NCBI GenBank assembly: GCA_963422365.1
Contig: OY729426.1
Coordinates: 1,888,001-1,952,000 of the forward strand
Direction of reading: 5' to 3'
DNA length: 64,000 bases
Origin: Nitrospirales bacterium
GTDB lineage: Bacteria > Nitrospirota > Nitrospiria > Nitrospirales > UBA8639
Shown here: positions 8,219-42,340 of the stretch, piece after piece
How positions within the stretch are numbered: the first letter of the stretch is position 1
Layout: every line of letters starts with the position of its first letter
Made by a program: the position numbers and the translations under genes
The notes under the pieces: model-generated
The model's input: only the letters and a program-made list of their open reading frames with translations
Told to the model about the DNA's origin: nothing
The model's database searches: none

Positions 8219-9478
8219 CTAAGGATAGAGCCCTCTGGCAGTATGGGCTTGCGCCACTTGATCAATTCCGCTCATGAGGGCAGCCATTCGCATCGTGATT
8301 TTTTTCTCTTCTGCAAAATGGAGTGTTCGATGAAAGGCCGTGGTGATGATTTCATGAAGTCGCTGCCGGATATCACTCTCATTCCAGAAAAAGCGTTGGA
8401 CATCCTGGACCCACTCAAAATACGAGACGATTACTCCGCCTGAATTGGCTAAAATATCGGGAATAATGAAGATATCTCGATCGTCCAAAATAGCGTCCGC
8501 CTCTAACGTCGTTGGCCCATTGGCCGCTTCTGCCAGAATACGACAGTGAAGGCGTTCAGCGTTGTTGCCGGTAATTTGTTCCGAGAGCGCAGCAGGAACC
8601 AACACGGTACAACTCAGGGTTAAAAGTTCATCGTTGGTCAGATGATCACCGACTTCCATTTCTTGAATAGGCAGGCCGGATCGATAGTGTTGAAAAATCG
8701 TCTCCATCGGTAAGCCCTTCGGATTAAAGATGCCCCCTGTTAGATCACTGATGCCAATCACTCGAGCCCCGGCTTCGTCAAAGATTTTGGCAGTGTGTGA
8801 ACCAACGTTCCCAAATCCTTGGATCACAACACTCGTGTCCTTCAGGTTGATCCCCTTATAGCGGAGCGCTTCTATCGTGACGTTCACGACCCCTCGACCG
8901 GTTGCTTCTTCGCGACCTAGACTTCCCCCGATCGAAAGGGGTTTGCCCGTGACGGCTCCCGGGACAGAGAATCCAACTTGTTGGCTGTAGGTGTCCATAA
9001 ACCAAGCCATGACTTGCTGATTCGTGCCGATATCGGTTGCTGGAATATCTTTGTCTGGGCCAATCAGCGGAAAAATTTCGGCAGCATACCGGCGGGTGAG
9101 TCGTTCGAGTTCGGAGAGTGACAGCCGATGAGGATTGACGTGGATGCCACCCTTTGCCCCTCCATAGGGAAGTCCTGCCAAGGCAGTTTTCCAGGTCATC
9201 CACATGGCTAAGCCTGCTACTTCTCCCAGGGTAACGTCCTGGTGGTACCGGAGCCCGCCTTTGGACGGCCCACGTGCAGAATCATGTTGGACTCGGTATC
9301 CTTGAAAGACGCGAACCTGGCCATCGTCCATCCGAATCGGAAGCGCAACCATCAATGACCGCTGGGGAGTTTTTAACCGCTCTCGTAAATTTGTCTCCAG
9401 GTTCATGGCTTCCGCGACCTGGTCAAATTGGGCAACAGCCAGACGAAAAGTCGGATGGTCGAATTCAGAGATCATCAT
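8219..9478 (-). CDS. gdhA: Glutamate dehydrogenase (Glu/Leu/Phe/Val dehydrogenase family)
   Basis: GYRVQH, GPSKGGLRY, LPYGGAKGG, GSLGREEATGRG, QGFGNVG, EAANGP, PDILANSGGVIVSYFEWVQ. Confidence 0.93.
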   Translation of the reverse strand: MMISEFDHPTFRLAVAQFDQVAEAMNLETNLRERLKTPQRSLMVALPIRMDDGQVRVFQGYRVQHDSARGPSKGGLRYHQDVTLGEVAGLAMWMTWKTALAGLPYGGAKGGIHVNPHRLSLSELERLTRRYAAEIFPLIGPDKDIPATDIGTNQQVMAWFMDTYSQQVGFSVPGAVTGKPLSIGGSLGREEATGRGVVNVTIEALRYKGINLKDTSVVIQGFGNVGSHTAKIFDEAGARVIGISDLTGGIFNPKGLPMETIFQHYRSGLPIQEMEVGDHLTNDELLTLSCTVLVPAALSEQITGNNAERLHCRILAEAANGPTTLEADAILDDRDIFIIPDILANSGGVIVSYFEWVQDVQRFFWNESDIRQRLHEIITTAFHRTLHFAEEKKITMRMAALMSGIDQVAQAHTARGLYP

Positions 9479-22439: not shown

Positions 22440-22623
22440 TTTTTGTTGTTCCTGCCTTTTTTCCGTACACTGAGGCAAACGGCCTTGGGGAAAACCCTTA
22501 CTGTTTTGATCTGTGATTCTCCTGTTGATACGAGGAAACAGAAGGCGACAATTCCCTTATGTATCCGTTTGCGAATTCGTGATGTGTGCTTTCTCTATTC
22601 AGGGTCAGCTCTTCGACATCGTT

Positions 22624-24924
22624 ATGGCGACGTCTTCTAAATTGACTCCGCGTTTATTTCCTTCCACGAGGTTGCAGGAACGGCTTATTCGTGAGGATGA
22701 GCCTAGCCCTCAAGCTCAGAGCTTCCATTTGAAACCGGTCTGGATCGTCCTGCTCCTCTTGATTCCGTGTTTGTTCTTGACGATTTACTATGCACAGTAT
22801 GGAGGAATTGGAGGAAGGACGGCAGACTCGCTTCTTCCAAGCCCGAGTTACGCATTGGTTTTGTTACTGGTCTATTTAGACGTCGTCGGATTGGTTGTCC
22901 TTATCCTTTTATTATCTCGCAATTTAATTAAGGCCTATTTTGATCGACGACACCGACTGTTAGGGTCAGGATTTCGTGCTAAATTAATTGCCGCATTCAT
23001 TGGGTTTTCGTTGATCCCAACCCTGTTATTGGCGGTTATAGCCAGTGAGGTAATTAATGAAGTCATGAAAGTCTGGTTTAATAATCAGATCGAGGAAGTC
23101 CTGAAAGACTCCGAAGAATTATCCAGGATGTATCATGAAGGGCATACGACCTTGGCCATTCAGAGTGCCAGGGCCATTAGCAAAGAAATTTACCGCGAAG
23201 ATTTTTTGCGGCCAGGTTATCGTGAACGATTCATGGCTGCCGTGGCTCGGAAGCGCGCGGAATTTAACGTCGCAGGCGTAGAAGTATTTTCGTCGAAATT
23301 GGAGATGCTCGTTCGGATGATCGACCCAGAGTCGCCTGCCAAAATGTTCCGGTTGCCGGTTGTGCAACTCGTTCGTCAGGTTCTGGATTCGCATGATGAG
23401 ATGACCTCAGTGCAAGTCGCGCAAGCAGGACGGGTGATCCTTGCGGCGGTGCCGATTGCATCCAATACACAACCCGGAGGGATTAATGGAGTGGTGGTCG
23501 TCAAGACCTACGTCTCGGAATCGCTCTTGGCGAAAATGCAGGGCATTGCTCAACAATATACTGATTTCCGGCAGATGAAGGCTTTGGAAAATCCTATTAA
23601 GGCCGGGGCCTATTTATTTGTTGGGGTTTTCACCGTCTTGTTGTTGTTTAGCGCCACCTGGTTTGGATTTTATGTGGCAAGAAGTATCACTGTGCCGATT
23701 CAGAAATTGGCTGAAGGGACCGAAGCCGTAGCCCGCGGAAATCTCAATATAAGAATTGCCGTCAATGCAACCGATGAGATCGGGACGTTGATCGAATCGT
23801 TTAATCGAATGACGGCGGATTTATCAAACAACAAAGTCAAATTGGAAGAAGCCAATCAATCTCTCATGCAATCAAATGTCGAAACTGATCGTCGGCGAGC
23901 GTATACGGAAGCCGTGGTAGACACGATTGCTTCAGGCGTGATGTCTATTGATACGCATGACACGATTACCACGTTCAATCATTCCGCTGAACGGATTTTA
24001 GGGGTGGGAGGGGAGGCCATCCGTGGGCATGTGGTGTTTGATGTCTTTAAATCCCATCAATTCACATTATTTCAAGAGGCCTATGATAAGATGTTACGTG
24101 ATGGCCAGGACAGTCTCACGCTTGAAGGACAAATAGAGGTGCAGGGGAAGCTCCTCACTATGGGCCTGAATCTTTCCCGAATGAGAAATGAGGCAGGAAA
24201 AGATTTAGGGTTTGTGCTTGTCTTTGAAGATCGGACCGAATTGATTAAGGCGCAAAAAACCGCAGCCTGGCAAGAAGTGGCACAACGGATTGCGCATGAA
24301 ATCAAAAACCCTCTTACGCCTATTCAACTGGCGGCACAGCGGTTACGAAAAAAGTTTTTTGAAGGGTCTCCTGAGTTTAAAACTATTTTTGATCAATCGA
24401 CGAACGTCATCGTGAATGAGGTGGGAAGTTTAAAGCGAATGGTGGATGAATTTTCAAAATTTGCCAGAATGCCTGCTCCGCATATGACGAAAGAAGCGTT
24501 GCACGATATCATTGAAAAAGTATGTGCGCTGTATCGGGGTGGGCATCATGAGGTTGAGTTTGTTTCGGCCTTTGATTCCTCTGTCCCGGATATCAAGATC
24601 GACAAGGAACAAATGCGTCGTATGTTTGTGAATTTGTTTGATAATGCCGTTCAAGCGATGAAGCAGAAAGGTCATATCTGGATCGCCACGAAAATGGATT
24701 GGAAGCACCAACGGGTTCGAATCACGGTGGCCGATGAGGGGCAGGGCATTCCTCAAGGAGATCAGGGAAAATTATTTATCCCGTATTTTTCACGAAAACG
24801 AACGGGAACCGGACTTGGACTGGCGATTGTCCATCGAATTGTGACGGATCATAATGGGACGATCCAGGTCTCCAATCGTCACCCCAATGGAGCCGTGTTT
24901 AGTATCGAACTTCCTGTCACCTAA
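22624..24924 (+). CDS. ntrY: NtrY-like sensor histidine kinase (TM-HAMP-PAS-HisKA-HATPase)
   Basis: GSGFRAKLIAAF, HAMP DEIGTLIESFNRMT, AAWQEVAQRIAHEIKNPLTPIQL, GTGLGLAIV; start uncertain. Confidence 0.9.
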   Translation: MATSSKLTPRLFPSTRLQERLIREDEPSPQAQSFHLKPVWIVLLLLIPCLFLTIYYAQYGGIGGRTADSLLPSPSYALVLLLVYLDVVGLVVLILLLSRNLIKAYFDRRHRLLGSGFRAKLIAAFIGFSLIPTLLLAVIASEVINEVMKVWFNNQIEEVLKDSEELSRMYHEGHTTLAIQSARAISKEIYREDFLRPGYRERFMAAVARKRAEFNVAGVEVFSSKLEMLVRMIDPESPAKMFRLPVVQLVRQVLDSHDEMTSVQVAQAGRVILAAVPIASNTQPGGINGVVVVKTYVSESLLAKMQGIAQQYTDFRQMKALENPIKAGAYLFVGVFTVLLLFSATWFGFYVARSITVPIQKLAEGTEAVARGNLNIRIAVNATDEIGTLIESFNRMTADLSNNKVKLEEANQSLMQSNVETDRRRAYTEAVVDTIASGVMSIDTHDTITTFNHSAERILGVGGEAIRGHVVFDVFKSHQFTLFQEAYDKMLRDGQDSLTLEGQIEVQGKLLTMGLNLSRMRNEAGKDLGFVLVFEDRTELIKAQKTAAWQEVAQRIAHEIKNPLTPIQLAAQRLRKKFFEGSPEFKTIFDQSTNVIVNEVGSLKRMVDEFSKFARMPAPHMTKEALHDIIEKVCALYRGGHHEVEFVSAFDSSVPDIKIDKEQMRRMFVNLFDNAVQAMKQKGHIWIATKMDWKHQRVRITVADEGQGIPQGDQGKLFIPYFSRKRTGTGLGLAIVHRIVTDHNGTIQVSNRHPNGAVFSIELPVT

Positions 24925-25044
24925 TGCCCCAAGACGGTGCATGAAGTCACCATGCCTCCTGCGGTAGATTCACCCCAAACCTTTTCGTGACGAATGACCT
25001 TCTGGCTCGTGATCGATCACTCGTCATAACTTGGAGGAATAGGA

Positions 25045-26421
25045 ATGTCCGGCACGATCTGTCTCGTTGATGATGAACCGTCTATCTTGAATACCTTAAG
25101 TAGTATTTTGGAAGACGAGGGGTATCAAGTCATGGTCGCGAAAACCGGTGAGGAGGCCTTAAAAGTCATTCAAATGGAGCCACCGGATATCGTGATCCTT
25201 GATATTTGGATGCCGGAACTCGATGGCTTAGAGGTTTTAAAACGTGTACGCGAGCAATTTCCAAATATGATGGTCATTATGATGTCCGGACATGGCTCCG
25301 TTGAAACTGCAGTGAAAGCGACAAAACTCGGTGCGTATGACTACTTGGAAAAACCGCTGGACCTCGAAAAAGTCGCTATCCTGGTACGTAATGCTCTGCA
25401 CCAACGCAAGCTGGAAGAAGAAAACAGCAACCTCCGCGTTAAGGTTGAGCGGCATTCGAAACTCGTTGGAGCTTCTTCCGTTATGGAGAAGCTTCGACAG
25501 CAAATTGCGGCGGCGGCGCCAAGCCAGAGTCGTGTCCTGATTTCCGGGGAAAATGGTACGGGGAAGGAACTGGTGGCCCGGGCCATCCATTTTCAAAGTC
25601 TTCGACCTCATTGCCCTTTTGTTGAAGTCAACTGCGCCGCAATCCCTGAGACGCTGATTGAGACAGAGTTATTCGGACATGAACGCGGTGCGTTTACAGG
25701 CGCTGTTTCTCGAAAACGTGGAAAATTTGATTTGGCAGACGGCGGCACTCTGTTTCTTGACGAAATTGGCGATATGAGTTTGGCCACTCAGGCGAAGGTC
25801 CTTCGCGTATTAGAAGAACAACAATTTACCCGAGTGGGCGGGGGGAACCTGATTAAAGTCAACGTCCGTGTCGTCGCAGCGTCCAATAAAAATTTTCGCC
25901 AAGAAATTGAAAAAGGGAATTTTCGCGAAGATTTGTTTTATCGGTTAAACGTTTTGCCGATAGAAGTGCCGCCGCTTCGCACCAGACGTGAAGATATTCC
26001 GGCTCTCACGCGGCATTTTTTAAAGATTCATGCAGAAGAGCAGGGGGTGAAGTTGAAAGAAATCACTCCGGGAGCCCTGGATGCATTGGTGCATCATGAA
26101 TGGCCGGGCAATATTCGAGAGCTTCGCAATCAAGTCGAGCGCCTGATGATTATGGTGCCCAAAAACACCATAGAAATGGCCGACATACTACCGTTTATGC
26201 CAACAAGAGGGGGCGAAGGTTCAGTGAACCGAGTCAATCCGATGGGGGCATATGATTCCTTGCGTGATGCTCGGAATGCGTTTGAACGCGAGTATATTGC
26301 GATTCGTTTGCGAGAGAATAGTTGGAACGTCTCAAAGACCGCCGACGACTTGAAAATCGAACGAAGTCACTTGCATCGAAAAATTAAACTTCTGAACGTG
26401 GAACTTCGTTCAGAAAACTGA
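25045..26421 (+). CDS. ntrX: NtrX-like sigma54-dependent response regulator
   Basis: REC (LVDDE, LDIWMP, MSGHG), [22 protein letters not shown]-terminal [11 protein letters not shown]. Confidence 0.92.
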
Positions 26422-30707: not shown

Positions 30708-31931
30708 ATGGCTGAATGGATTATGAAGCGAATGTGTTTGTTTATTTTTGGTATTGCCGTGGCGGGGTGGCTTCCTGCACCACTATTGAGTTCGGTGGCT
30801 CTGGCGGAAGATGAGGATCAATCTTTGGCGAAGAAATTAGATCTTTCGCTGTATGGCTATGTGGAAGCCTCGTATACACAAAATTTCAACAATCCTTCTA
30901 CGGGGGTGAATAACAATCGGAGTTTTGACGGCGATGCGAATTCCTTTCGACCCAACATGGCGCAGATCGTCCTGGAGAAGGTCGCGAGTTCAGGAGGGTC
31001 ACTGACTGATCGGGCAGGATTCCGCATTAAGCTGAATGCCGGTGAAGACGCCAAATTTACCGGCGGAAGCAGCGGCAATGACGATTTTGATTTTCAAGAA
31101 GCCTACGTCCAATACATTGCGCCCATAGGAAACGGTGTCATGTTTCAAGCCGGTCGCATGAACACGCTGATCGGATATGAAGTGATCGAAAGCCCGCTCA
31201 ATCCCAATTTCTCCCGGTCCTTTCTGTTCGGCATGGGAGAACCCTTCACGGTAACGGGGCTTCGCGCAGCGTATGACTTTACGGACAATGTCTCGTTTGC
31301 GGTCAGCGCCATCAATTCATTTACGGGATCGCAATCCGATGAAAATAGCAGCAAATCCGTCGAGGCGCTCCTTTCTCTCGCCCCTATGGATAACGTGGGG
31401 GTGTCCGTGTTTGGTTTTTGGGGGCCTGAAGGCGATCGAGGACAAAAAGATACGGACCGTGTGCAGGTGGGAGGAATTCTGGACGTACAGGTCACCGACC
31501 AACTGGAACTCGTGCTTGAAGGCTATTATGGGAATCATGCAAATCATCCTGATGATCCAGGATTGGTCAATGCCCGTTGGAATGGGGTCGCGGGATATTT
31601 CATTTATGACTTTACCGACCAGTGGGGATTCCACGTCCGGGGTGAAGTCTTTGAAGACGCGGCAGGCAAATTCTCGTGTGCCGGTGGTGGTGGCAATGCC
31701 CTTGCCTGCCCTGGACATAATGAAGAGAATTATAAAGGTGAAGAGAATTATAAAGGGCCTAGCCAAACATTGTGGGAAACGACGTGGACCCTGCAATACA
31801 AGCCGGTTCCCAATCTCATTACACGAGCGGAATTCCGGTACGATAAGTCCGACAGGAATACGTTTCAAAATGGCGCCGGTGTGGGCAATAATCAATCAAC
31901 CTTAGCCGCGGAAGCGATCTTCCTCTTTTAG
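30708..31931 (+). CDS. Outer-membrane beta-barrel porin (DUF1597/BBP2-like)
   Basis: Signal peptide; YGYVEASY, QEAYVQY, GRMNTLIGYEVIESPLNPNFSRS, RAEFRYD; C-terminal Phe; AAGGAG RBS. Confidence 0.88.
   Translation: MAEWIMKRMCLFIFGIAVAGWLPAPLLSSVALAEDEDQSLAKKLDLSLYGYVEASYTQNFNNPSTGVNNNRSFDGDANSFRPNMAQIVLEKVASSGGSLTDRAGFRIKLNAGEDAKFTGGSSGNDDFDFQEAYVQYIAPIGNGVMFQAGRMNTLIGYEVIESPLNPNFSRSFLFGMGEPFTVTGLRAAYDFTDNVSFAVSAINSFTGSQSDENSSKSVEALLSLAPMDNVGVSVFGFWGPEGDRGQKDTDRVQVGGILDVQVTDQLELVLEGYYGNHANHPDDPGLVNARWNGVAGYFIYDFTDQWGFHVRGEVFEDAAGKFSCAGGGGNALACPGHNEENYKGEENYKGPSQTLWETTWTLQYKPVPNLITRAEFRYDKSDRNTFQNGAGVGNNQSTLAAEAIFLF
31721..31756 (+). repeat. Perfect 18-bp tandem duplication inside the porin gene
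   Basis: TGAAGAGAATTATAAAGG x2, encoding EENYKG EENYKG in frame. Confidence 0.95.
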
Positions 31932-31960
31932 GGAAGTCTTAAGAAACAAGGAGGAAGAAG

Positions 31961-33277
31961 ATGGAACCTAAGACAAGAACATTGCCCACATATTTCAGTC
32001 TGGTCGTCTTGACCGTACTGGGGTTTTTAGTGTTTGCTGCAATCGCGTTCGCAGATGAATCCGGTGAAAATGCAGCGATCAGTGCCGGTGACACAGGATG
32101 GCTTCTGACCTCCTCTGCGTTGGTTCTCGCCATGACCATTCCAGGACTAGCCCTGTTTTACGGCGGGATGGTGCGCAACAAAAACGTGCTGAGCACCATG
32201 ATGTACAGTTTTATTTCCGTGTGCGTGGTCAGCGTGGTCTGGGTGTTGTGGGGCTATACCCTTGCCTTCGGCACGGACGTGGGGGGTGTCATCGGCAATT
32301 TTGAGTTTTTGTGGTCAAACGGCGTTGGGCCGGAAGCTTTTCCCGGAACTGCAGTCCCGCATCTCGCCTTCATGGTCTTTCAGCTCATGTTTGCAGGGAT
32401 TACCGTAGCGCTGATCAGCGGGGCCATTGCGGAACGCATGAAATTCCGGGCCTTCGTGCTGTTTGCAATGCTATGGGCCACTCTGATTTATTCACCGCTT
32501 GCCCATTGGGTCTGGGGTGGTGGATGGCTAGGTGAATTAGGCGCCTTGGATTTTGCCGGCGGCACGGTCGTACACATTAGTTCGGGGGTCGCGGCCCTGG
32601 CCGCAGCGCTTGTGATCGGCAAGCGGCATGGCTATGGGTCAGACAATATGGCTCCTCATAATTTGCCCCTTACAGTTGTTGGGGCCTCCCTATTATGGGT
32701 TGGGTGGTTTGGGTTTAACGCAGGGAGTGCCTTGGCAGCCGATGGTATTGCTGCAGGGGCCTTTGTGGCCACGCACGTGGCCACCTCTGCCGGCGTGTTG
32801 GCGTGGCTGGCCGTGGAATGGATGTATCGAGGGAAACCAACGGTCTTGGGTGGAGCAAGCGGTGCCATTGCCGGTTTGGTGGCGATCACTCCCGCGGCAG
32901 GTTTTGTCGGCCCGATTTCCGCGATTTGGATTGGGCTTGGCGCTGGGGTCTTCTGTTATTTAGCGGTAGTATGGAAATCCAAGTTCGGCTATGATGATGC
33001 TCTCGATGTGCTCGCGATTCATGGCATTGGAGGAACCTGGGGTGCCATAGCCACAGGACTCTTTGCCAGCGTGGGCGGGGGGACCGGCTTGTTTTTCGGA
33101 AATCCGGGGCAAGTCCTGATTCAGGTTATCGGCGTTGGAGCCACTTTGGTGTTTTCGTTTGTCGGCACGTTTATTATTCTGAAAGTGTTGGACATGTTGA
33201 TGGGCCTTCGAGTGAGCAAAGAGGACGAGATTATCGGGCTAGATCTTAGTGAACATAGTGAACAGGCATATGCCTAA
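31961..33277 (+). CDS. amtB: Ammonium transporter (copy 1)
   Basis: PGLALFYGG, FQLMFA, HWVWGGGW, DFAGGTVVH, WFGFNAGSAL, DDALDV..HG. Confidence 0.97.
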   Translation: MEPKTRTLPTYFSLVVLTVLGFLVFAAIAFADESGENAAISAGDTGWLLTSSALVLAMTIPGLALFYGGMVRNKNVLSTMMYSFISVCVVSVVWVLWGYTLAFGTDVGGVIGNFEFLWSNGVGPEAFPGTAVPHLAFMVFQLMFAGITVALISGAIAERMKFRAFVLFAMLWATLIYSPLAHWVWGGGWLGELGALDFAGGTVVHISSGVAALAAALVIGKRHGYGSDNMAPHNLPLTVVGASLLWVGWFGFNAGSALAADGIAAGAFVATHVATSAGVLAWLAVEWMYRGKPTVLGGASGAIAGLVAITPAAGFVGPISAIWIGLGAGVFCYLAVVWKSKFGYDDALDVLAIHGIGGTWGAIATGLFASVGGGTGLFFGNPGQVLIQVIGVGATLVFSFVGTFIILKVLDMLMGLRVSKEDEIIGLDLSEHSEQAYA

Positions 33278-33319
33278 ATCGCGAGTTCTGGTTTCCGTTG
33301 ATGGGAGAAAAAATCATGA

Positions 33320-33730
<411 letters not shown>

Positions 33731-33807
33731 GAGTCTTTTCCAGACTGTTTGCTTTGTCTCACTGACTGGAGACGCAACTGAAGATAACCTGAACCCAAGG
33801 TGGAACC

Positions 33808-35106
33808 GTGAAACACTCGACCTTCTCATTCATGTGGCTATTGGTTGTGGTTCTGAGCTTATGTTGTGGGCTGGCAAACGGATGGGCCCAGGAAGGGACC
33901 TCCGGGGGCATCGATACGGGTGATACGGCATGGATTCTGGTATCGTCTGCATTCGTGTTGTGTATGACGTTTCCTGGATTGGCGCTCTTTTATGGCGGGC
34001 TGGTCCGGAGTAAAAACGTACTTGGGACGCTTATGCATACCGGCGTTATCCTGTGCGGAATCAGTATCGTATGGGTCCTGCTTGGCTACTCATTGGCATT
34101 CGGCACTGACATCGGCGGAATGATCGGCAGTCTCGAATTTCTTGGCTTGCTGGGCGTGGGACAAGACGCCTATCCCGGCACCGGCATTCCTCATTTAGCC
34201 TTTATGATGTTTCAACTCATGTTTGCCGCCATCACTGTGGCTTTGATTACCGGAAGCTTTGCTGAGCGGATGAAATTCACGGCCTTGCTGCTTTTTGCCG
34301 TACTCTGGTCAGTCCTGATTTATTCGCCCCTTGCCCATTGGGTGTGGGGAGGAGGTTGGCTGGCAGAGATGGGCGCGCTGGACTTTGCAGGAGGCGCCGT
34401 TGTGCACATCAGTTCCGGGTTTGCAGCTCTTGTCTGTGCCCTGGTATTAGGAAAGCGCAAAGGCCATGGGATTGAGCCTATGCCTCCTCACAATCTCCCC
34501 ATGACAGTCTTAGGCACAGGGCTATTATGGTTTGGGTGGTTTGGATTTAACGCAGGCAGTGCCTTAGGTGCCAATGGGGGAGCGGCTTCAGCCTTTGTGG
34601 CCACGCATATTGCGGCTTGTGCCGGTGGGGTTAGTTGGGTGGCGGTAGAATGGATCCGAAGCGGTAAGCCGACCGTGCTTGGATTGGCGAGCGGCATTAT
34701 CGCAGGCTTGGCCACCATTACTCCAGCAGCCGGATTTGTAAGGCCCTTGTCAGCTTTAATTATTGGAGTGTTGGCGGGTGTGCTCTGTTATGCAGCCGTT
34801 GTCTGGAAAACAAGACTCGGGTACGATGACTCGCTCGATGTGGTCGGCATTCACGGAGTGGGAGGGTTCATCGGAATCCTGGCAACCGGGTTATTGGCTT
34901 CGGTAGGAGCACAGGGGTTATTTTTCGGGAACCCCTGGCAATTTGTGATCCAGCTAGTGCTGGCCTTTGCCACTATGGTTTTTGCCCTGGTGGGAACCTA
35001 CATTATTTTAAAAGTCGTCGATCTCACTGTGGGTCTTCGCGTTTCATCGGACGATGAAGAAGTCGGGCTGGATTTAAGCCAACATAATGAGCGTGCCTAT
35101 TCCTAA
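33808..35106 (+). CDS. amtB: Ammonium transporter (copy 2)
   Basis: Same Amt motifs: FQLMFA, DFAGGAVVH, WFGFNAGSAL, DDSLDVVGIHG. Confidence 0.97.
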   Translation: MKHSTFSFMWLLVVVLSLCCGLANGWAQEGTSGGIDTGDTAWILVSSAFVLCMTFPGLALFYGGLVRSKNVLGTLMHTGVILCGISIVWVLLGYSLAFGTDIGGMIGSLEFLGLLGVGQDAYPGTGIPHLAFMMFQLMFAAITVALITGSFAERMKFTALLLFAVLWSVLIYSPLAHWVWGGGWLAEMGALDFAGGAVVHISSGFAALVCALVLGKRKGHGIEPMPPHNLPMTVLGTGLLWFGWFGFNAGSALGANGGAASAFVATHIAACAGGVSWVAVEWIRSGKPTVLGLASGIIAGLATITPAAGFVRPLSALIIGVLAGVLCYAAVVWKTRLGYDDSLDVVGIHGVGGFIGILATGLLASVGAQGLFFGNPWQFVIQLVLAFATMVFALVGTYIILKVVDLTVGLRVSSDDEEVGLDLSQHNERAYS

Positions 35107-35167: not shown

Positions 35168-36577
35168 ATGACTCCGCGTGAGGTATTGGATTTTGCGAAA
35201 AAAAACAAGGTGGAAATGGTTGATTTGAAATTTGTGGACTTGGTCGGGACGTGGCATCATTTTTCTATCCCCACCTCGGAACTGACTCTTGATTTGTTTA
35301 AAGATGGATCAGGATTTGACGGGTCGTCTATCCGTGGGTGGAAAGCGATTCAGAATAGCGACATGCTGGTGTTTCCTGATCCGAACACTGCGAGGGTGGA
35401 TCCGTTTACCGAACTTCCCACTCTCAGCATGGTGTGTAACGTGCAAGATCCAATCACGCATGCAGTCTATGAGCGGGACCCACGAGGCGTGGCTCAACGA
35501 GCGGAGCAATATCTCAAGAGCACCAAAATCGGCGATGTCTCCTATTGGGGACCTGAAGCCGAATTCTTTGTTTTTGATCATGCCAGTTATGATCAAAACA
35601 GTCACTCAGGATATTATTTCATCGACTCCGAGGAGGGTATTTGGAATTCGGGAGAAGACGTCCACAATTTAGGCTCACGGCCTCGGCATAAGGAAGGCTA
35701 TTTCCCCGTCGCCCCAACGGACACGCAACAAGATATCCGCTCCGAAATGGTCAGGGAAATGGAAAAAGTCGGAATTCACGTTGAAAAACACCATCACGAA
35801 GTGGCCACGGCAGGACAAGCTGAAATTGATCTTCGCTTTGATACGTTAGTGAGTATGGCCGACAAAATGATGATGTATAAGTACATTGTCAAAAACGTGG
35901 CCCGGCGTCATAACAAAACCGCGACGTTTATGCCGAAACCGTTATTCCAGGATAATGGAACAGGCATGCATACCCATCAAAGTATTTGGAAAGACGGGAA
36001 ACCGACCTTTGCCGGCAAAGAATATGCGGGTGTTTCGAAAACGTGTTTGTATTACATCGGCGGCGTCCTGAAACATGCTCCGGCCTTAGCGGCGTTTACG
36101 AATCCGACGACCAATTCCTATAAACGGTTGACGCCTGGATTCGAAGCTCCGGTGTTGTTGGCGTATTCCAGCCAGAACAGGTCGGCCGGCATTCGGATTC
36201 CGATGTATTCTTCCAATCCGAAAACTAAACGAATCGAGGTGAGATTTCCCGATCCCTCAGCCAATTTCTATTTGGCGTTTAGTGCGATGCTGATGGCGGG
36301 ACTCGACGGCATTCAAAATAAAATTGACCCGGGCGAAGCCATGGACAAAAATCTCTACGATTTGGAACCGGAAGAAGCGACCAATATTTCAACGGTTCCC
36401 GCAAGTTTGGAAGATGCCATCAACAATTTGGAAAACGACTATCAATTCCTGCTAAAAGGGGGAGTCTTCAGCGAAGATCTAGTGGAAGCCTGGATCGGCT
36501 ACAAGAGGGACAATGAAGTGGATCAGGTCAGAATTCGACCCCATCCGCATGAATTCTTTTTGTACTACGATATTTAA
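35168..36577 (+). CDS. glnA: Glutamine synthetase type I (beta, adenylylatable)
   Basis: [42 protein letters not shown], adenylylation loop KNLYDL. Confidence 0.98.
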
Positions 36578-36614: not shown

Positions 36615-36655
36615 AAAAAGGCGTGTATCTGATTCAATCGCAACGCGCCTTTTTT
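36615..36655. terminator. Probable bidirectional terminator-like hairpin between glnA and the convergent glnE-AT gene
   Basis: AAAAAGGCGTGT...ACGCGCCTTTTTT; overlaps last codons of the minus-strand gene. Confidence 0.6.
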
Positions 36656-39015
36656 CTCCCTCCACGAAACGGGCTCCGTTGTTTCGCGTTCTCTTCGGCT
36701 CTTGTTTGATTATTCTCTACTGCAGGTTTCTCTTCCTGGATTGCTTGTGGGGAAAAAAACTTGGCAAAGAATGTGCGTGACCGGTTCATGCGTTTTTGTA
36801 ACTCGCGTTCAAACGCTCGCGCCCCTTCTTGCCAGACGTCGGTCATATACCCCAATCTTCTTGCGAGGTACGTCATGTTGTCCGACCCTGGTTGCGGCAA
36901 CACTAAGTCCTTGGCATTTCCCCGAACGATACGCAATCCATCGATAACCTTTCGCATAAACAGATAATCTTCCATCAAGATCGTTGCATCGTGACGTGAG
37001 AGAAGTTTTGTCGCTTGAAGGGCTTCAAGCGCTTGCAGAGTGTTGGTTGTATGGAGTGAGGCCTCCCGGTGTCCATGCTGTAATTGGAAGTATTGCACGG
37101 TGTATTCAATATCGATAAGCCCACCCGGGCTGTATTTCACGTGAATGGTTCCCGGAGGAACCAACTCTTGTATCTGCCGGCGGCGCAGGTGTAACGCGGT
37201 GTCTAACGGCCAGGGGGCTTGACCATACACGAATTCATCTCTGTAGCGTTCTATTTGTCGACCAAGGGCAGCATTTCCTGCGACGTGTCGCAGCTTAATC
37301 CAGGCTTGCCGCTCAAAAGGCGCAGCCGCTCCTTCTGTCCGGTAATAGCGTTTAATTTCTTCAAATGAATGAGCCAGCAGGCCTTTTTCTCCGTGAGGTC
37401 GAAGTCGGATATCAAGTTGAAAAATTCCTTCCTGTTTAGCTTCGATCCAACGAAGGAATTCTTGGACGAGTCGCTCAAAGTATTCACCGACGACGGGGTT
37501 GGGAGTATCAGAAATCTTCGAGAACGTCCCGTAGACAAAGATCACCTCAATGTCGGAAGCATAGCCTAGCTCACGCCCTCCCAACTTGCCCAACCCACAA
37601 ATGCTGAACGGCAAAGGGTCCCTCTTCAGCGTGGATGGCAGTATGCGTAACAGATCGACCACCGCCTGAGCCTCACTGAGGGCTTGTGCTAAGATCACTT
37701 CGGCCAAGGTCGTGAGAGATTTGGAGAATGCGGGGAGCGGTATCTTTTTGAGAATATGGTGCATGTCGATACGAAACAACTCCTGATCTTTAAACTGATT
37801 CAATATCGCTTTTCTGATTTCAGCTTTTTTGCTCTTTCTGAGTCTGGACTCTAACGCTTTGGCCAGAGAGGTTTTTGATAAACGGACATGGGGTTGATGA
37901 AACTTTTCAACAATAGGCAAGAGGTTGACGTGTTGCCGGCGAAGGAAGTCTTCCCATAAGAAATCGCTCGTGCCAAATAACCGAGCAAGATTAGCCAACG
38001 AATCCTTTCTGGTGAGCCATTTGATTTGTTTCTTGCTGAGGCGATTTTCCAGGAGCTGATCGAGGAAGTCACTAAAATGATTCAAAGCCTTGCAGGGGTC
38101 AGGAGCCCAGGTGAGGTAATGGGTAAATTCCTTGATGAGGGCTATGGCCACGGTCAGCTCTTGTTGTTCTTGTGCCGAGACGATTTTCTTTCCATACCGA
38201 TCTCTGACAAAAAATCGGTTATAGACGCTCCTCCCGTCTCCTTCGATCGTAGCTTTTGATAACGAGAGCCCTCTCATGGTCAACGCATTCATAAAGGCAT
38301 ACAAAAAAGCCGGAGAATCCGTGGCTCTGATATTGACAACCGTTTCACGTGGAGACAGTGTATTGTTAAAGAAAATTTCAACCGGCTGGACAAGATCGGA
38401 GGTAGACGTTTTTCTTTGTCCAAGAGTTTCGACTAATTTTCGGTTCACCCAACTCCGAACCTCCTGGATTTTCTGTAACTCGAGTAATTGAATCATGTTC
38501 GTCAATTCCCGACTCAGCTCTTTTTGAATGTTGGCATTGAAGAGAGCACCCGGCAGAACGTGAACCCGAAAGATGTCCACGACTTTTTTTCTTGATAACC
38601 CTGACCGCTGAATGTGCCGGCGGATCGGCCATTTGGGTACTCGCATGCGACGTAAGGATTTCGGCAGGAGGGGAGGGGGAGGAGCGGGATGGTCTTGATA
38701 CGTAAAAATAGAGGCTTCACGTATATCGAGGCCATAGGCAGACAGCAACCCGCAAATTGTGGCAAATTCTGCAAAATAGTCGTAGGCAACAATGGTGAGC
38801 CGATACTGGCTTGTATCGTTTGCAGGTTGCACGTGGAGCGTACAGGGGGATTCCAAGGTCAGGGTATTGGCCAAGGCCAGGTGTCGAGCAACAGTTTGTG
38901 GTCGAAATTGTGAGAAATAATCTGGATCCATGCGATCCAGAAAATCTTTGATAACCGTGGGATTGACTTGAGGAGAGAGTTCTTGTAATTCCGTCAGCTC
39001 AAGCGTCTTTTTCAT
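36634..39015 (-). CDS. glnE: GlnE adenylyl-transferase half fused to two N-terminal GlnD-like ACT domains
   Basis: ACT-like LTIVAYD..FATICGLLSAYGLDIREASIFT and FNNTLSPRETVVNIRATDSPAFLY; NT motif GLGKLGGRELGYASDIE, DIRLRPHG, KYSPGGLIDIEY. Confidence 0.85.
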   Translation of the reverse strand: MKKTLELTELQELSPQVNPTVIKDFLDRMDPDYFSQFRPQTVARHLALANTLTLESPCTLHVQPANDTSQYRLTIVAYDYFAEFATICGLLSAYGLDIREASIFTYQDHPAPPPPLLPKSLRRMRVPKWPIRRHIQRSGLSRKKVVDIFRVHVLPGALFNANIQKELSRELTNMIQLLELQKIQEVRSWVNRKLVETLGQRKTSTSDLVQPVEIFFNNTLSPRETVVNIRATDSPAFLYAFMNALTMRGLSLSKATIEGDGRSVYNRFFVRDRYGKKIVSAQEQQELTVAIALIKEFTHYLTWAPDPCKALNHFSDFLDQLLENRLSKKQIKWLTRKDSLANLARLFGTSDFLWEDFLRRQHVNLLPIVEKFHQPHVRLSKTSLAKALESRLRKSKKAEIRKAILNQFKDQELFRIDMHHILKKIPLPAFSKSLTTLAEVILAQALSEAQAVVDLLRILPSTLKRDPLPFSICGLGKLGGRELGYASDIEVIFVYGTFSKISDTPNPVVGEYFERLVQEFLRWIEAKQEGIFQLDIRLRPHGEKGLLAHSFEEIKRYYRTEGAAAPFERQAWIKLRHVAGNAALGRQIERYRDEFVYGQAPWPLDTALHLRRRQIQELVPPGTIHVKYSPGGLIDIEYTVQYFQLQHGHREASLHTTNTLQALEALQATKLLSRHDATILMEDYLFMRKVIDGLRIVRGNAKDLVLPQPGSDNMTYLARRLGYMTDVWQEGARAFERELQKRMNRSRTFFAKFFSPQAIQEEKPAVENNQTRAEENAKQRSPFRGGRKKARCD

Positions 39016-39098
39016 GGCAAATCAGTATACCTTCACGTGTTACTATTGTAAGGACAGGCTGCCAGTTTATCATCAAACGTTTCTCAGCGTTATTCCAG

Positions 39099-40736
39099 AT
39101 GCCCATCATGAGCAACCCACAATCGTCCGCAAGCTGCGACCCTCGCCCTCTCCTGCTTTCTCCGGATTTGGCGCCTGCGGAAGTCGCACGGTTGTTGGCT
39201 CCGTATAGATTCCATAATTGGAAGCAAGCCGACGCCAACCTGCAACTCATGGCCGGTGATCCTCGAAGCCGAAAACTGCTTGCTGACATTCTCCCTGATC
39301 TCTTGTACGCCGTCTCGGTAACGGCCGATCCGGATCAAGCTTTACGTGAATGGGAACGATACCTTGATGCCGGCAATGGAAGAGCCCAGGTCTTTAGCTT
39401 TTTGGCACAAGTGCCACACGTCTTGCAATTGGTCTGCGTCCTCTTTGGAAACAGTCCTGCCATGGCGGAAACGCTTATTCGAGACCCTATGCTGATTTAT
39501 TGGGTCGAGGATGAGCATATCCTGAAATCCCACCCCACTCCCAAACCACTCCGGACGGCGTTGCACCAAACCCTTGATCTTGTGCAAGCCTATGAACAGA
39601 AGCTTGACGTTCTTCGGCGCTTTCATCGGCGCGAAATGCTACGCATTGGCGCGCGGGATCTCTTTCGCGTTTCGTCCGTCAAGGAAACCGTTCACTCTCT
39701 GTCGCAACTCGCGGAAATTGTCATCCATGCCGCGTATCAGCTTGTCAACGAAACACTACAAAAAAAATACGGCATTCCCTCTCATCAAGGTCCCAAAGGC
39801 ACAACAAGTGAAACAGGGTTTGTGGTGTTGGGAATGGGAAAGTTAGGTGGCCGTGAACTCAATTACAGCTCCGATGTCGATCTCGTCTATTTATATGCGT
39901 CAAGCAACGGTCACACAAAAACCGTTAAAGGGCAGGCAGGTCTCGGCAATGAGGCTTTTTTCCAAATGCTCGCGAGAGAACTGACTCACGTCTTGTCGGC
40001 TTCTACTTCGGAAGGGTGTTTATTTCGAGTGGATTTGCGATTGAGACCTGAGGGGGCAGGTGGACCATTAGCATGGTCGAGCCGTGAAGCCATCAAATAC
40101 TATCAAACACGGGGAAGAAGTTGGGAGCGACTGGCCTTGTTCAAAGCTCGCGCCATAGCAGGGCAACGGTCTGTTGGCCAGGCCTTTCTCAGGAGGATTC
40201 GGCCGTTTGTCGTAGGGCGAGAAGAACGGGAACCCCACAACATTCTAGACACGGTTCGTGCGCTCAGGACACAGATTCACCAAAAAGTGGAACAAAAAGG
40301 GGAGCATGAACGCAACGTCAAACTCAGTCCCGGAGGAATTCGGGACATTGAATTCATTGTCCAGACTCTTCAATTACTGCATGTTCCAACGTATCCACAA
40401 TTGTTCGAGCCCAATACGATCACAAGCCTTCAATGTCTTTGTGACCTCAACCTCTTGCGAGCCTCGGATGGCAAAGCCTTGGAGGAAGCCTATCTGTTTT
40501 TGCGCGACGTCGAGCATAAACTCCAAATGGTTCATGAACTGCAAACCCATACCTTACCGATTCACCCTTCTGAATTGACCAAATGTGCCATCCGCATGGG
40601 TTATGCAGAACAACGTACCTCTTCTGCGGCTACAAGATTGCTTACCCGTTACCGATTCGTCCTGAATCAGGTTCAACGCCTCTATCAACAAATGTTGCCT
40701 TCACGATCGCATGCCACAGGTGATGGATCTCTATAA
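39099..40736 (+). CDS. glnE: GlnE adenylyl-removing half as a stand-alone gene
   Basis: GMGKLGGRELNYSSDVDL, FRVDLRLRPEG, WERLALFKAR, NVKLSPGGIRDIEFIVQ, YLFLRDVEHKLQ; only one NT domain in 545 aa. Confidence 0.87.
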   Translation: MPIMSNPQSSASCDPRPLLLSPDLAPAEVARLLAPYRFHNWKQADANLQLMAGDPRSRKLLADILPDLLYAVSVTADPDQALREWERYLDAGNGRAQVFSFLAQVPHVLQLVCVLFGNSPAMAETLIRDPMLIYWVEDEHILKSHPTPKPLRTALHQTLDLVQAYEQKLDVLRRFHRREMLRIGARDLFRVSSVKETVHSLSQLAEIVIHAAYQLVNETLQKKYGIPSHQGPKGTTSETGFVVLGMGKLGGRELNYSSDVDLVYLYASSNGHTKTVKGQAGLGNEAFFQMLARELTHVLSASTSEGCLFRVDLRLRPEGAGGPLAWSSREAIKYYQTRGRSWERLALFKARAIAGQRSVGQAFLRRIRPFVVGREEREPHNILDTVRALRTQIHQKVEQKGEHERNVKLSPGGIRDIEFIVQTLQLLHVPTYPQLFEPNTITSLQCLCDLNLLRASDGKALEEAYLFLRDVEHKLQMVHELQTHTLPIHPSELTKCAIRMGYAEQRTSSAATRLLTRYRFVLNQVQRLYQQMLPSRSHATGDGSL

Positions 40737-40997: not shown

Positions 40998-42251
40998 TGA
41001 TGCAAAGAAAATTGAAAACGATGTGTTAGCCTGTTACTAGCTGGTTGTGGGTGTGACTGTGGTGGGATCCCTGATGCTCTCGCAAGGGATTTGTTTACCG
41101 TGAATGTGAAGATTGACGACGGCAAGGAACAGATTTTTGGCTTTTCCAAGGCGGACAATGCACTGCGCACCTTTGAAGGCGTCAAACTTAAAGCGTTGTT
41201 TCCACAGTACGTGCCCGAGAAGAGTATGGTAGATGGCAAGATCAATTTCTGTGGCTTGGCTTTAAGCGGTGGCTACGATGAAAATGCAAAAAATCTTACC
41301 TTTGCGGTGCCGTCTTTGGGCATTAGTGAAAAATTTATAGGCAAGACGCGAAAGGAAAGCGTCGACAAGTTAGTAGACTTCCTGAAGAATGGAGAAGAGA
41401 AGGGAAAAGATCTTCTGCGACATATTTAACAGGAACTTTCCCGCACTTCTCCAGTAGACCCAGTCGTCGGCAACCCGAACAGTCTGCAATCCTCATTGGT
41501 GAAGAACGCATTCGATGATGGTATCTCGCGCACAACTCGCACGGTTAAGAAAAATGCCGGCTGGTATTACCGTGTCCGGCGGTACATTCAGGTCTGGTTC
41601 ATACAGGGGAAGTACTCTAACGTTACCATTGAGCTATGCAATCGAATTTAGTGAAGACTCTCGCAAGAAGCAGCTAAAGTTCAGGTTGCCTGTTACCTAC
41701 ATACAGGTCGAGGGGGGAGACGTGTTCAGCGCGCCTCCAGGCGTGGCATTGACGTTGCCCGTATCGGACAGCTGGTCGCTCACGCCGACTGTGTCCTATG
41801 GAGTGACCGGCTCAGTTGATTTAGCCTCCGCGTCTCAAATGCTAGGTGGTACGTTGACCAGTCGGAAGGAGTTTGACGACCTTCGGATCAAAGACACAAA
41901 GGTTACTCTGGCAAACATGATCGGATATCTCACCACGCTGAAGGTCGCGATAGGCGATATTGTCTATGACCCCGGGATTGTCAACATGGTCTACAAGAAT
42001 GGAATCACGGTTGAATCCCCGTTGGGATTTCAGATGTTCGAGTGGCATCCTGTGACACTGGAGGCATCGTATACCCATTCTTACTTTGCAGGAACAGAGT
42101 TGTTTTTGAATCAGTATCATGAGGTGGCGCCGAGTATGGGGTCCGGATCGGATGCGCTTGATTGGCTTCCCTCCGACCTGCAGCGGGGAGTTACCTCTGT
42201 ATTCGGGGAAGATTTTGACTCGTTCACCGCAATTTCGGCTACAGCTTCTGA
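40998..42251 (+). pseudogene. Degraded exported/outer-membrane beta-barrel protein gene
   Basis: Signal-peptide-like start with frameshift; in-frame TAA at 41427 followed by open QELSRTSPVDPVVGNPNSL; frameshift near 41560; beta-strand-rich ORF 41515-42279; shifted frame ends NFGYSF-TGA. Confidence 0.7.
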
Positions 42252-42340
42252 GCTAAGGCTTGGTCGCGGTTTATTTTAGGCCGTTGGGGGGGGGAACTTT
42301 TCAGGGAAAATGAGGGTTTCCGTGGTTTGGGAGAAGGAAG

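Follow-up and report, generated by a model that had tools for sequence, protein, structure and literature searches.

The GlnE protein of a Nitrospirales bacterium is encoded as two genes with one GlnE module each, and the protein with the adenylyltransferase-type module also carries a tandem ACT region homologous to the C terminus of GlnD. The genes lie in a 64,000-nucleotide stretch of DNA (the window; contig OY729426.1, positions 1,888,001 to 1,952,000, assembly GCA_963422365.1) from a genome that is a single contig and 98.6% complete; all relatives with a name belong to the Nitrospirales, and the nearest stands at 92%. The features on which the argument rests, in window coordinates, are as follows.

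36634..39015, minus strand: 793-aa protein with ACT-ACT and a single DxE-type GlnE module, the probable glutamine synthetase (GS) adenylyltransferase (writer)
36754..37995, minus strand: GlnE nucleotidyltransferase module and helical domain of this protein, residues 341-754, GKLGGRELGYASDIE
38143..38979, minus strand: its GlnD-type C-terminal region, residues 13-291, comprising lead-in helices, ACT1, linker, and ACT2
39099..40736, plus strand: 545-aa single-module GlnE, the probable adenylyl-removing enzyme (eraser)
35168..36577, plus strand: glnA, type I GS with an NLYDL loop, the probable target

The two GlnE genes are head to head with 83 bp between their starts, both frames are intact, and glnA converges on the 793-aa gene with 56 bp between them. 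When the translations were scanned, each protein contained one PF03710 (GlnE) and one PF08335 match, at residues 341-590 and 625-754 of the 793-aa protein and at residues 112-365 and 389-532 of the 545-aa protein. The scores of the two proteins were 134.5 and 236.8 bits for PF03710 (curated cut-off of 24) and 55.1 and 107.3 bits for the PF08335 helical domain (cut-off of 21). Among solved structures, both match the Escherichia coli GlnE domains 1v4a and 3k7d alone. The genome has no other strong GlnE module; a third, weak match is the N terminus of GlnD. Neither is a one-chain enzyme with the removing module first: the proteins scored 194.6 and 351.7 bits against PRK11072 (cut-off of 487), and both fall under every full-length NCBIfam GlnE cut-off. 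The motifs ELNYSSDVD, WERLALFKAR, ELGYASDIE, and FERQA, as well as NLYDL in GlnA, were found in the translations. The open reading frames and the domain scan thus confirm the proposal of a first-pass annotation of this DNA that GlnE is split into two intact divergent genes.

In E. coli, the C-terminal GlnE domain adds AMP and the N-terminal domain removes it (PMC12409994, PMC12663964). To assign the two halves, 138 modules were aligned, including both halves of 21 canonical GlnE proteins (from E. coli, 14 Nitrospirota, alpha-proteobacteria, and actinobacteria) from which the columns typical of the adenylyl-removing (AR) and adenylyltransferase (AT) modules were derived. In the canonical N-terminal modules, N169, R324, and Q385 (E. 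coli numbering) are fixed in 21 of 21 proteins and H382 is present in 20. The 545-aa protein keeps these AR-type residues as N255, R415, Q476, and H473, together with D259, D261, and D312 at the positions of E. coli D173, D175, and D223. The 793-aa protein is without every AR-type residue. The column of N169 is occupied by Gly in all 54 ACT-linked modules (G484 in the 793-aa protein), as in the E. coli AT module (G697), and the column of Q385 is Arg in all 54 (R695), as it is in 17 of the 21 canonical C-terminal modules, though not in E. coli. N169 and G697 are said to decide function, reportedly in work by Xu et al. from 2010.

The trees agree with these residues. When 43 modules were placed in a tree with a mixture model, all 13 DxE modules grouped together (SH-aLRT of 100). 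A branch with an SH-aLRT of 96 has this group and 8 of the 10 canonical C-terminal modules on one side, and the 545-aa protein is on the other, AR side. The corresponding AR/AT branch had a support of 98.3 in a tree of 73 modules under LG+G4. In addition, the DxE module occupies the AT position in fusions with the order AR-ACT-ACT-DxE; our family survey covered the best 150 representatives at 50% identity, and 43 of them are fusions of this kind. Some observations count against the assignment. Both actinobacterial C-terminal modules group with their own N-terminal modules (97), so the side of the tree is a guide to activity but not a perfect one; a long stem (0.96) leads to the DxE group; and the column of W782 differs from both canonical types, being F567 in the 793-aa protein and Phe or Tyr in most DxE modules. 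The two actinobacterial proteins (L135 from Nonomuraea and L138 from Tsukamurella) show this grouping in each of the three trees calculated, a hint that their modules were duplicated separately or homogenised. Based on the diagnostic residues and the trees, we propose that the 545-aa protein is probably the adenylyl-removing enzyme and that the 793-aa protein is probably the GS adenylyltransferase, the "off" half, as the first-pass annotation had suggested.

The metal motif of the putative writer is DxE, a feature that had been called atypical. Within its GlnE module, the key residues are G484, D488, E490, the third acid D535, and R695. Of these, D488, E490, and D535 do not vary across the 65 aligned relatives, nor do the glycines of the GK-GG motif and the arginines of RLRP (R537 and R539). 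SD[IV]E is present in 119 of the 120 best homologues, and the ACT-adjacent module reads G-x-x-SD-x-E in 144 of 147 distant representatives (one has Asp, and two were unparsed). All 54 ACT-linked modules have DxE, and all 21 canonical C-terminal modules have DxD. DxE is permitted by the superfamily pattern hG[GS]x(9,13)Dh[DE]h (PMC11646218), and the motif is active in the adenylyltransferases KNTase, in which Asp50 and Glu52 bind Mg, and LinB (Asp40 and Glu42) (PMC4631478). DxE is therefore better described as a signature of the ACT-DxE family than as an anomaly, and we take the module to be active.

The homology of residues 13-291 to GlnD was established by profile comparison. This region matches positions 611-845 of the GlnD model TIGR01693, the last 235 of the model, with an E value of 4e-18. 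When a profile of 24 ACT regions was compared with one of 8 GlnD C termini, the match had a probability of 99.8% and an E value of 3.5e-28 over 213 columns that cover the lead-in helices, ACT1, the linker, and ACT2; the expectation of a GlnD-type tandem ACT region on the AT-type half was thus correct. The 793-aa protein is not itself a GlnD, as its score against the full-length model is 65 bits (cut-off of 519.4) and comes from the C-terminal part only; the best stretch listed for it contains no match to the N-terminal or HD parts of GlnD. Against the homology stands the Pfam ACT-type match of the 793-aa protein on its own (23.8 bits), which is under the curated cut-off of 27. PF24931 (ACR9-like ACT) matches 45 of the 65 relatives at E <= 0.01, and the threshold of PF01842 is passed by two distant family members. 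The ACT aspartates (Asp79 and Asp233) are invariant in the 65 relatives, and so is the F-L pair that follows the Asp in ACT2. The residues after Asp read DYFAEF in ACT1 and DSPAFL in ACT2, versus DRPYLF and DQPGLL in GlnD. An Arg/Pro-rich insertion of 38 residues (about residues 108-145, window 38590-38690) stands in ACT1 in place of a 5-residue turn of GlnD; it is present in 11 of 11 family members parsed, with a length of 17-50 residues, and is basic in 10 of them.

Several published results bear on what the ACT pair may sense. The glutamine response of GlnD requires its ACT domains (Zhang 2010, cited in PMC11190351), and a GlnD-like ACT region confers glutamine activation on the algal amylase AMA2 (PMC11190351), so glutamine is our best guess, not a result, for the ligand. 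Other points detract from this proposal. An ACT leucine matters for the glutamine response of Chlamydomonas AMA2, as seen with the L110G mutation (PMC11190351), and in our alignment this position is Glu83 in ACT1 and Phe237 in ACT2, so the ligand may differ. Furthermore, the AT activity of canonical GlnE from Herbaspirillum seropedicae and E. coli senses glutamine directly, without ACT domains (bioRxiv 10.64898/2026.09.02.748916), which means that the ACT pair could serve another signal. Direct glutamine sensing by canonical GlnE is thus no novelty, and what is new here is the ACT module.

The split, ACT-bearing GlnE is real, widespread, and conserved. Among 80 genome loci obtained with the alignment of the 65 relatives, the 545-type gene is head to head with the 793-type gene in 75; of the remainder, three have 30 or fewer bases of flank, one has fewer than 800, and one (L070) has 2.8 kb of upstream sequence in which an AR gene was not found. 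In a sample of 121 Nitrospirales genomes with a completeness of at least 95%, both genes are present in the same 111 and neither is present in the same 10. In those 10 genomes, the GlnE family model gives weak matches at most, at GlnD where the place is listed, and in the two of them that we examined, glnA runs directly on to clpB. At the genome loci, a convergent glnA lies within 400 bp in 33 of the 80. The 793-type protein was found in 26 of 151 genomes drawn across the phylum Nitrospirota, all within the class of the source organism; other classes have an ordinary fused GlnE of ∼930-1100 aa or none. Misassembly of the junction, which the first-pass annotation had raised as a concern, is ruled out by the 75 divergent loci and by an assembled contig from a second study that covers window positions 38500-40203, across the junction, with zero differences; the sequencing run that matched best (X3), possibly the source of this DNA, was not taken as independent support. 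Similarly, the intact frames and invariant catalytic residues rule out a pseudogene or fragment. Broken gene copies were seen in L102, L108, G018, and G233 and may be sequence errors.

Outside the Nitrospirales, the ACT-DxE unit is found in other arrangements. The commonest form among the best 150 representatives is a reversed, circularly permuted fusion, ACT-ACT-DxE-AR (67 proteins, such as P0126 and P0132); besides the 43 AR-first fusions, there are 36 proteins in which ACT and a single module were detected (some of these being fusion fragments) and 3 in which no ACT was detectable, a short fragment having been excluded from the count. Source names, available for 4 of 30 clusters, were Anaerolineae, Acidobacteriota, Abditibacteriales, and Nitrospirota; further leads, from Atlas clusters, are Planctomycetota, Chloroflexota, and Thermodesulfobacteriota. 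Of 80 metagenome loci that were fetched with non-Nitrospirales-like members, 49 encode AR-first fusions, 4 have co-directional gene pairs, 12 lack a flank, and 15 have an upstream flank with no AR neighbour (solo ACT-DxE genes). In the genome G124, the halves lie on different contigs with unrelated flanks, the AR gene just after glnA. The fusions in both orders, the gene pairs, the solo genes, and this separation indicate that the ACT-DxE unit is stable and its tie to the eraser loose.

The gap between the two genes contains a candidate promoter for each of them.

39024..39052, minus strand: candidate sigma70-type promoter of the 793-aa gene, CTTACA-17-TATACT
39046..39073, plus strand: candidate sigma70-type promoter of the 545-aa gene, TTGTAA-16-TATCAT

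The two opposed −35 hexamers are the two strands of one element, and the ATG of the 793-aa gene is 8 nt past its −10 hexamer, so the writer mRNA is probably leaderless. A promoter scan of the window alone gave 5 sites versus 4.9 expected; only conservation across loci therefore carries weight. The double pattern recurs in 25 of the 74 gaps from loci, out of 80, that include both starts (200 shuffles gave a mean of 0.79 and a maximum of 4), 20 loci carry exactly TATACT and TATAAT at 17 bases, and the ATG lies 7-9 bases past the −10 element in 32 of 39. This evidence is tempered by the facts that the pattern was defined after 18 loci had been viewed and that it was not found in most Nitrospiraceae loci, being largely confined to the source organism's own family. 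A sigma54 consensus was present in none of the 74 gaps. A sequencing run guessed to be RNA gave pieces on glnA, one 158-base piece in the 793-aa gene, and none in the 545-aa gene, which we do not count as evidence. The earlier idea that writer and eraser may be differentially expressed found no support: the overlapping sigma70-like promoters, with their shared −35 element, suggest coupled housekeeping expression rather than separate nitrogen control.

The other components of the cascade are present in the source genome. A full glnD, encoding a 918-aa frame that scores 671 bits, is located at G000:C1:1583069-1585675. The statement that the window contains no glnD was accurate for the window but misleading for the organism, and the absence is uninformative because GlnD is present in this genome and scores above the cut-off in 101 of the 121 Nitrospirales genomes. 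One more has a partial copy, and 19 are without GlnD, of which 18 belong to a single genus (g2, 28 genomes sampled; four of the 18 are single-contig). Both GlnE genes are kept in all 19, indicating that the pair can persist without PII uridylylation, although these kin are not independent; in the four GlnD-less g2 genomes that were checked, GlnK Tyr51 is kept. The 10 genomes without the GlnE pair all keep GlnD. glnK is the only PII gene of the source genome, and its product keeps Tyr51. The ACT part of the GlnD model also has another, weak match at G000:C1:1534549-1534746, inside a 732-aa frame.

The tyrosine of the NLYDL loop of GlnA was set aside as support for adenylylation. It is kept in 6 of 6 GlnE-less genomes checked, which speaks against using it, and so it is not evidence that GlnA is the target. 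The GlnE-less genomes that keep this tyrosine include five from the same genus (G112, G166, G182, G210, and G222; L254-L258). None of these five has PEE after LYDLx, a sequence present in 35 of 40 GlnA copies from GlnE-bearing loci; its loss possibly represents a relaxed docking constraint and is confounded by kinship. In one single-contig genome, glnA is in two frames (G215:C1:2451239-2452644), a frameshift or sequence error.

We propose that the two genes encode a two-protein switch composed of an ACT-gated GS adenylylase (793 aa) and a separate removase (545 aa), a model that we favour with some reservation. A nitrogen-rich signal, most likely glutamine, would bind the ACT pair of the 793-aa protein, and this pair, taken from the C terminus of GlnD, would then switch on AMP transfer from ATP to the NLYDL tyrosine of GlnA by the DxE module. 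When the writer is silent, the 545-aa eraser would restore GS, presumably by phosphorolysis, as in E. coli; it could be constitutive or be tuned by GlnK and GlnK-UMP where GlnD exists. Both proteins would be made from the overlapping housekeeping promoters, so control would be mostly allosteric.

The same activities could instead reside in an obligate heterodimer that is equivalent to full-length GlnE, with PII or ACT signals passing between the halves and the split being a mere rearrangement. The strict joint presence and absence of the genes, their overlapping promoters, and the existence of fusions in both orders and of co-directional pairs would fit such an enzyme, but a writer and an eraser that do not bind each other would also be lost together, the halves are separated in G124, and the AR gene is missing beside L070 and the 15 solo metagenome loci. 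We consider an obligate heterodimer unlikely, and that the two proteins form a complex at all is somewhat less likely than not. Not exclusive of the heterodimer is the proposal that the ACT pair reads another signal (an amino acid, 2-oxoglutarate, or a PII surface) or serves for docking, in which case the basic ACT1 insertion could be that surface. The divergence from GlnD after the ACT aspartates, the insertion itself, and the glutamine sensing of canonical AT point in this direction; against it, both aspartates and the ACT2 F-L pair are invariant in the 65 relatives, and in AMA2 a GlnD-type ACT region grafted on another enzyme kept glutamine sensing. We regard this, too, as an improbable account.

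A more radical alternative is that the DxE module is inactive or that the roles are swapped, with the 545-aa protein catalytic and the 793-aa protein a sensor subunit or the eraser. The Asp-to-Glu change, the long branch, and the loss of W782 could be read in this way, and with each of the two E. coli domains (1v4a and 3k7d) the 545-aa protein scores higher than the 793-aa protein. Nevertheless, the catalytic positions are all invariant, DxE is active in KNTase and LinB, the 793-aa protein is without AR-type residues, and some ACT-DxE genes have no AR gene next to them or adjoin a phosphodiesterase gene (see below), so that we find this reading very unlikely. It is harder still to believe that the ACT-DxE protein substitutes for GlnD by nucleotidylating GlnK rather than GS. 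It does carry GlnD's sensor, and GlnD is missing in 18 of the 28 g2 genomes, where GlnK Tyr51 was kept in the four checked, but family score and tree both make the module GlnE-type, an AR module is joined to it in one chain in 110 of the best 150 representatives, and a full GlnD is retained by the source genome and by 100 more of those sampled.

The proposed ACT-gated writer with a separate eraser resembles several known systems in part. As in bifunctional GlnE (E. coli b3053, 946 aa), an AR-type module is paired with a homologous AT-type module, both have the GK-GG-x-SD motif and third acid, and a type I GS with an NLYDL loop adjoins them here; unlike that enzyme, the modules are encoded by divergent genes, the AT-type module has DxE and an N-terminal tandem ACT region, and relatives are also fused in reversed order. 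The lead-in helices, ACT1, linker, and ACT2 are homologous to those at the C terminus of GlnD, but in the 793-aa protein the pair is N-terminal and has the basic insertion, and the true GlnD is a separate gene. The α-amylase AMA2 of Chlamydomonas and plant ACR proteins, among which ACR11 is linked to GS/GOGAT control (PMC11190351), likewise have a GlnD-like ACT region that gates or accompanies another activity, although they come from eukaryotes and none is a nucleotidyltransferase. GlnE variants of Herbaspirillum, Rhodospirillum, and Streptomyces are known cases in which adenylylation of GS does not depend on PII, or on GlnD; these are described as single bifunctional enzymes, and the preprint cited above never uses the word ACT.

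The split ACT-DxE GlnE is thus a real, conserved, and uncharacterised variant of a known system, the design of which is apparently unstudied. Our search of open-licence papers found no description of a split ACT-DxE GlnE or of a Planctomycetes version, although one may exist in subscription journals or supplements, which were outside its scope. The GlnE family as listed in the available text of PMC3710099 is without this form, and streamlined lake Nitrospira genomes are described as having no glnE (PMC9239080).

Textbooks present the GlnD-PII-GlnE-GS cascade as the model bicyclic switch, with a logic that supposedly depends on signals passed between the two halves of a single GlnE chain. In the system described here, nature supplies the halves as separate proteins, elsewhere in both fused orders, with GlnD's sensor placed directly on the likely writer. 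No new chemistry is expected of it. The split pair is the only GlnE form found in the sampled nitrite-oxidising Nitrospirales, and it therefore bears on how much ammonium these nitrifiers allot to assimilation and how much to other purposes. It would also offer a natural stand-alone GS off-switch for the study of glutamine sensing by an ACT pair, and its wider family provides a lead to a possible new de-AMPylase.

This lead comes from the solo ACT-DxE genes. At 6 of the 15 solo loci (L160, L162, L166, L169, L177, and L230, for example L230:3706-4908, minus strand), a PF01663 gene (type I phosphodiesterase/nucleotide pyrophosphatase) is head to head with the ACT-DxE gene, in the place of the AR gene. 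The six phosphodiesterases are 39-55% identical to one another, their named homologues are from Chloroflexota and Dehalococcoidia, and the metal-binding motifs are kept in 111-120 of 120 homologues. The ACT-DxE partners fall in one tree group of 11 rows (95), which also has two solo genes without the phosphodiesterase and two AR-linked members; the pairing probably reflects one old event. Snake-venom phosphodiesterase strips AMP from GS in vitro (PMC12409994). A phosphodiesterase at the place of the AR gene supports DxE as the writer and suggests that this enzyme is a hydrolytic eraser, a candidate de-AMPylase in a Chloroflexota lineage. A broader possibility, which we put forward only tentatively and think unlikely on balance, is that ACT-ACT-DxE is a self-contained, metabolite-gated protein adenylylase of several phyla that needs neither PII nor GlnD and has an exchangeable eraser, either an AR module (joined at one end or the other, or encoded by its own gene) or a phosphodiesterase. 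If this were true, the Chloroflexota alkaline-phosphatase-family phosphodiesterase would be a de-AMPylase with a fold outside those in the available text of two AMPylation papers. The solo genes L171, L173, L174, L178, L188, and L195 form a second group, which adjoins neither AR nor phosphodiesterase genes.

Other genes in the window include a cluster upstream of glnA with two putative amtB genes, named from sequence resemblance rather than from a family scan.

30708..35106, plus strand: BBP2 porin, amtB, glnK, and second amtB

An NtrY-like kinase and a sigma54 response regulator (window 22513-26421) lie ∼4 kb upstream of the porin-amtB-glnK-amtB-glnA cluster, and a glutamate dehydrogenase-family gene is at window 8219-9478. 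Between the 545-aa gene and clpB is a 254-aa frame (window 41515-42279) without a Pfam match; in the nearest relatives, clpB directly follows the removase gene, and this frame may be a recent insertion or a remnant.

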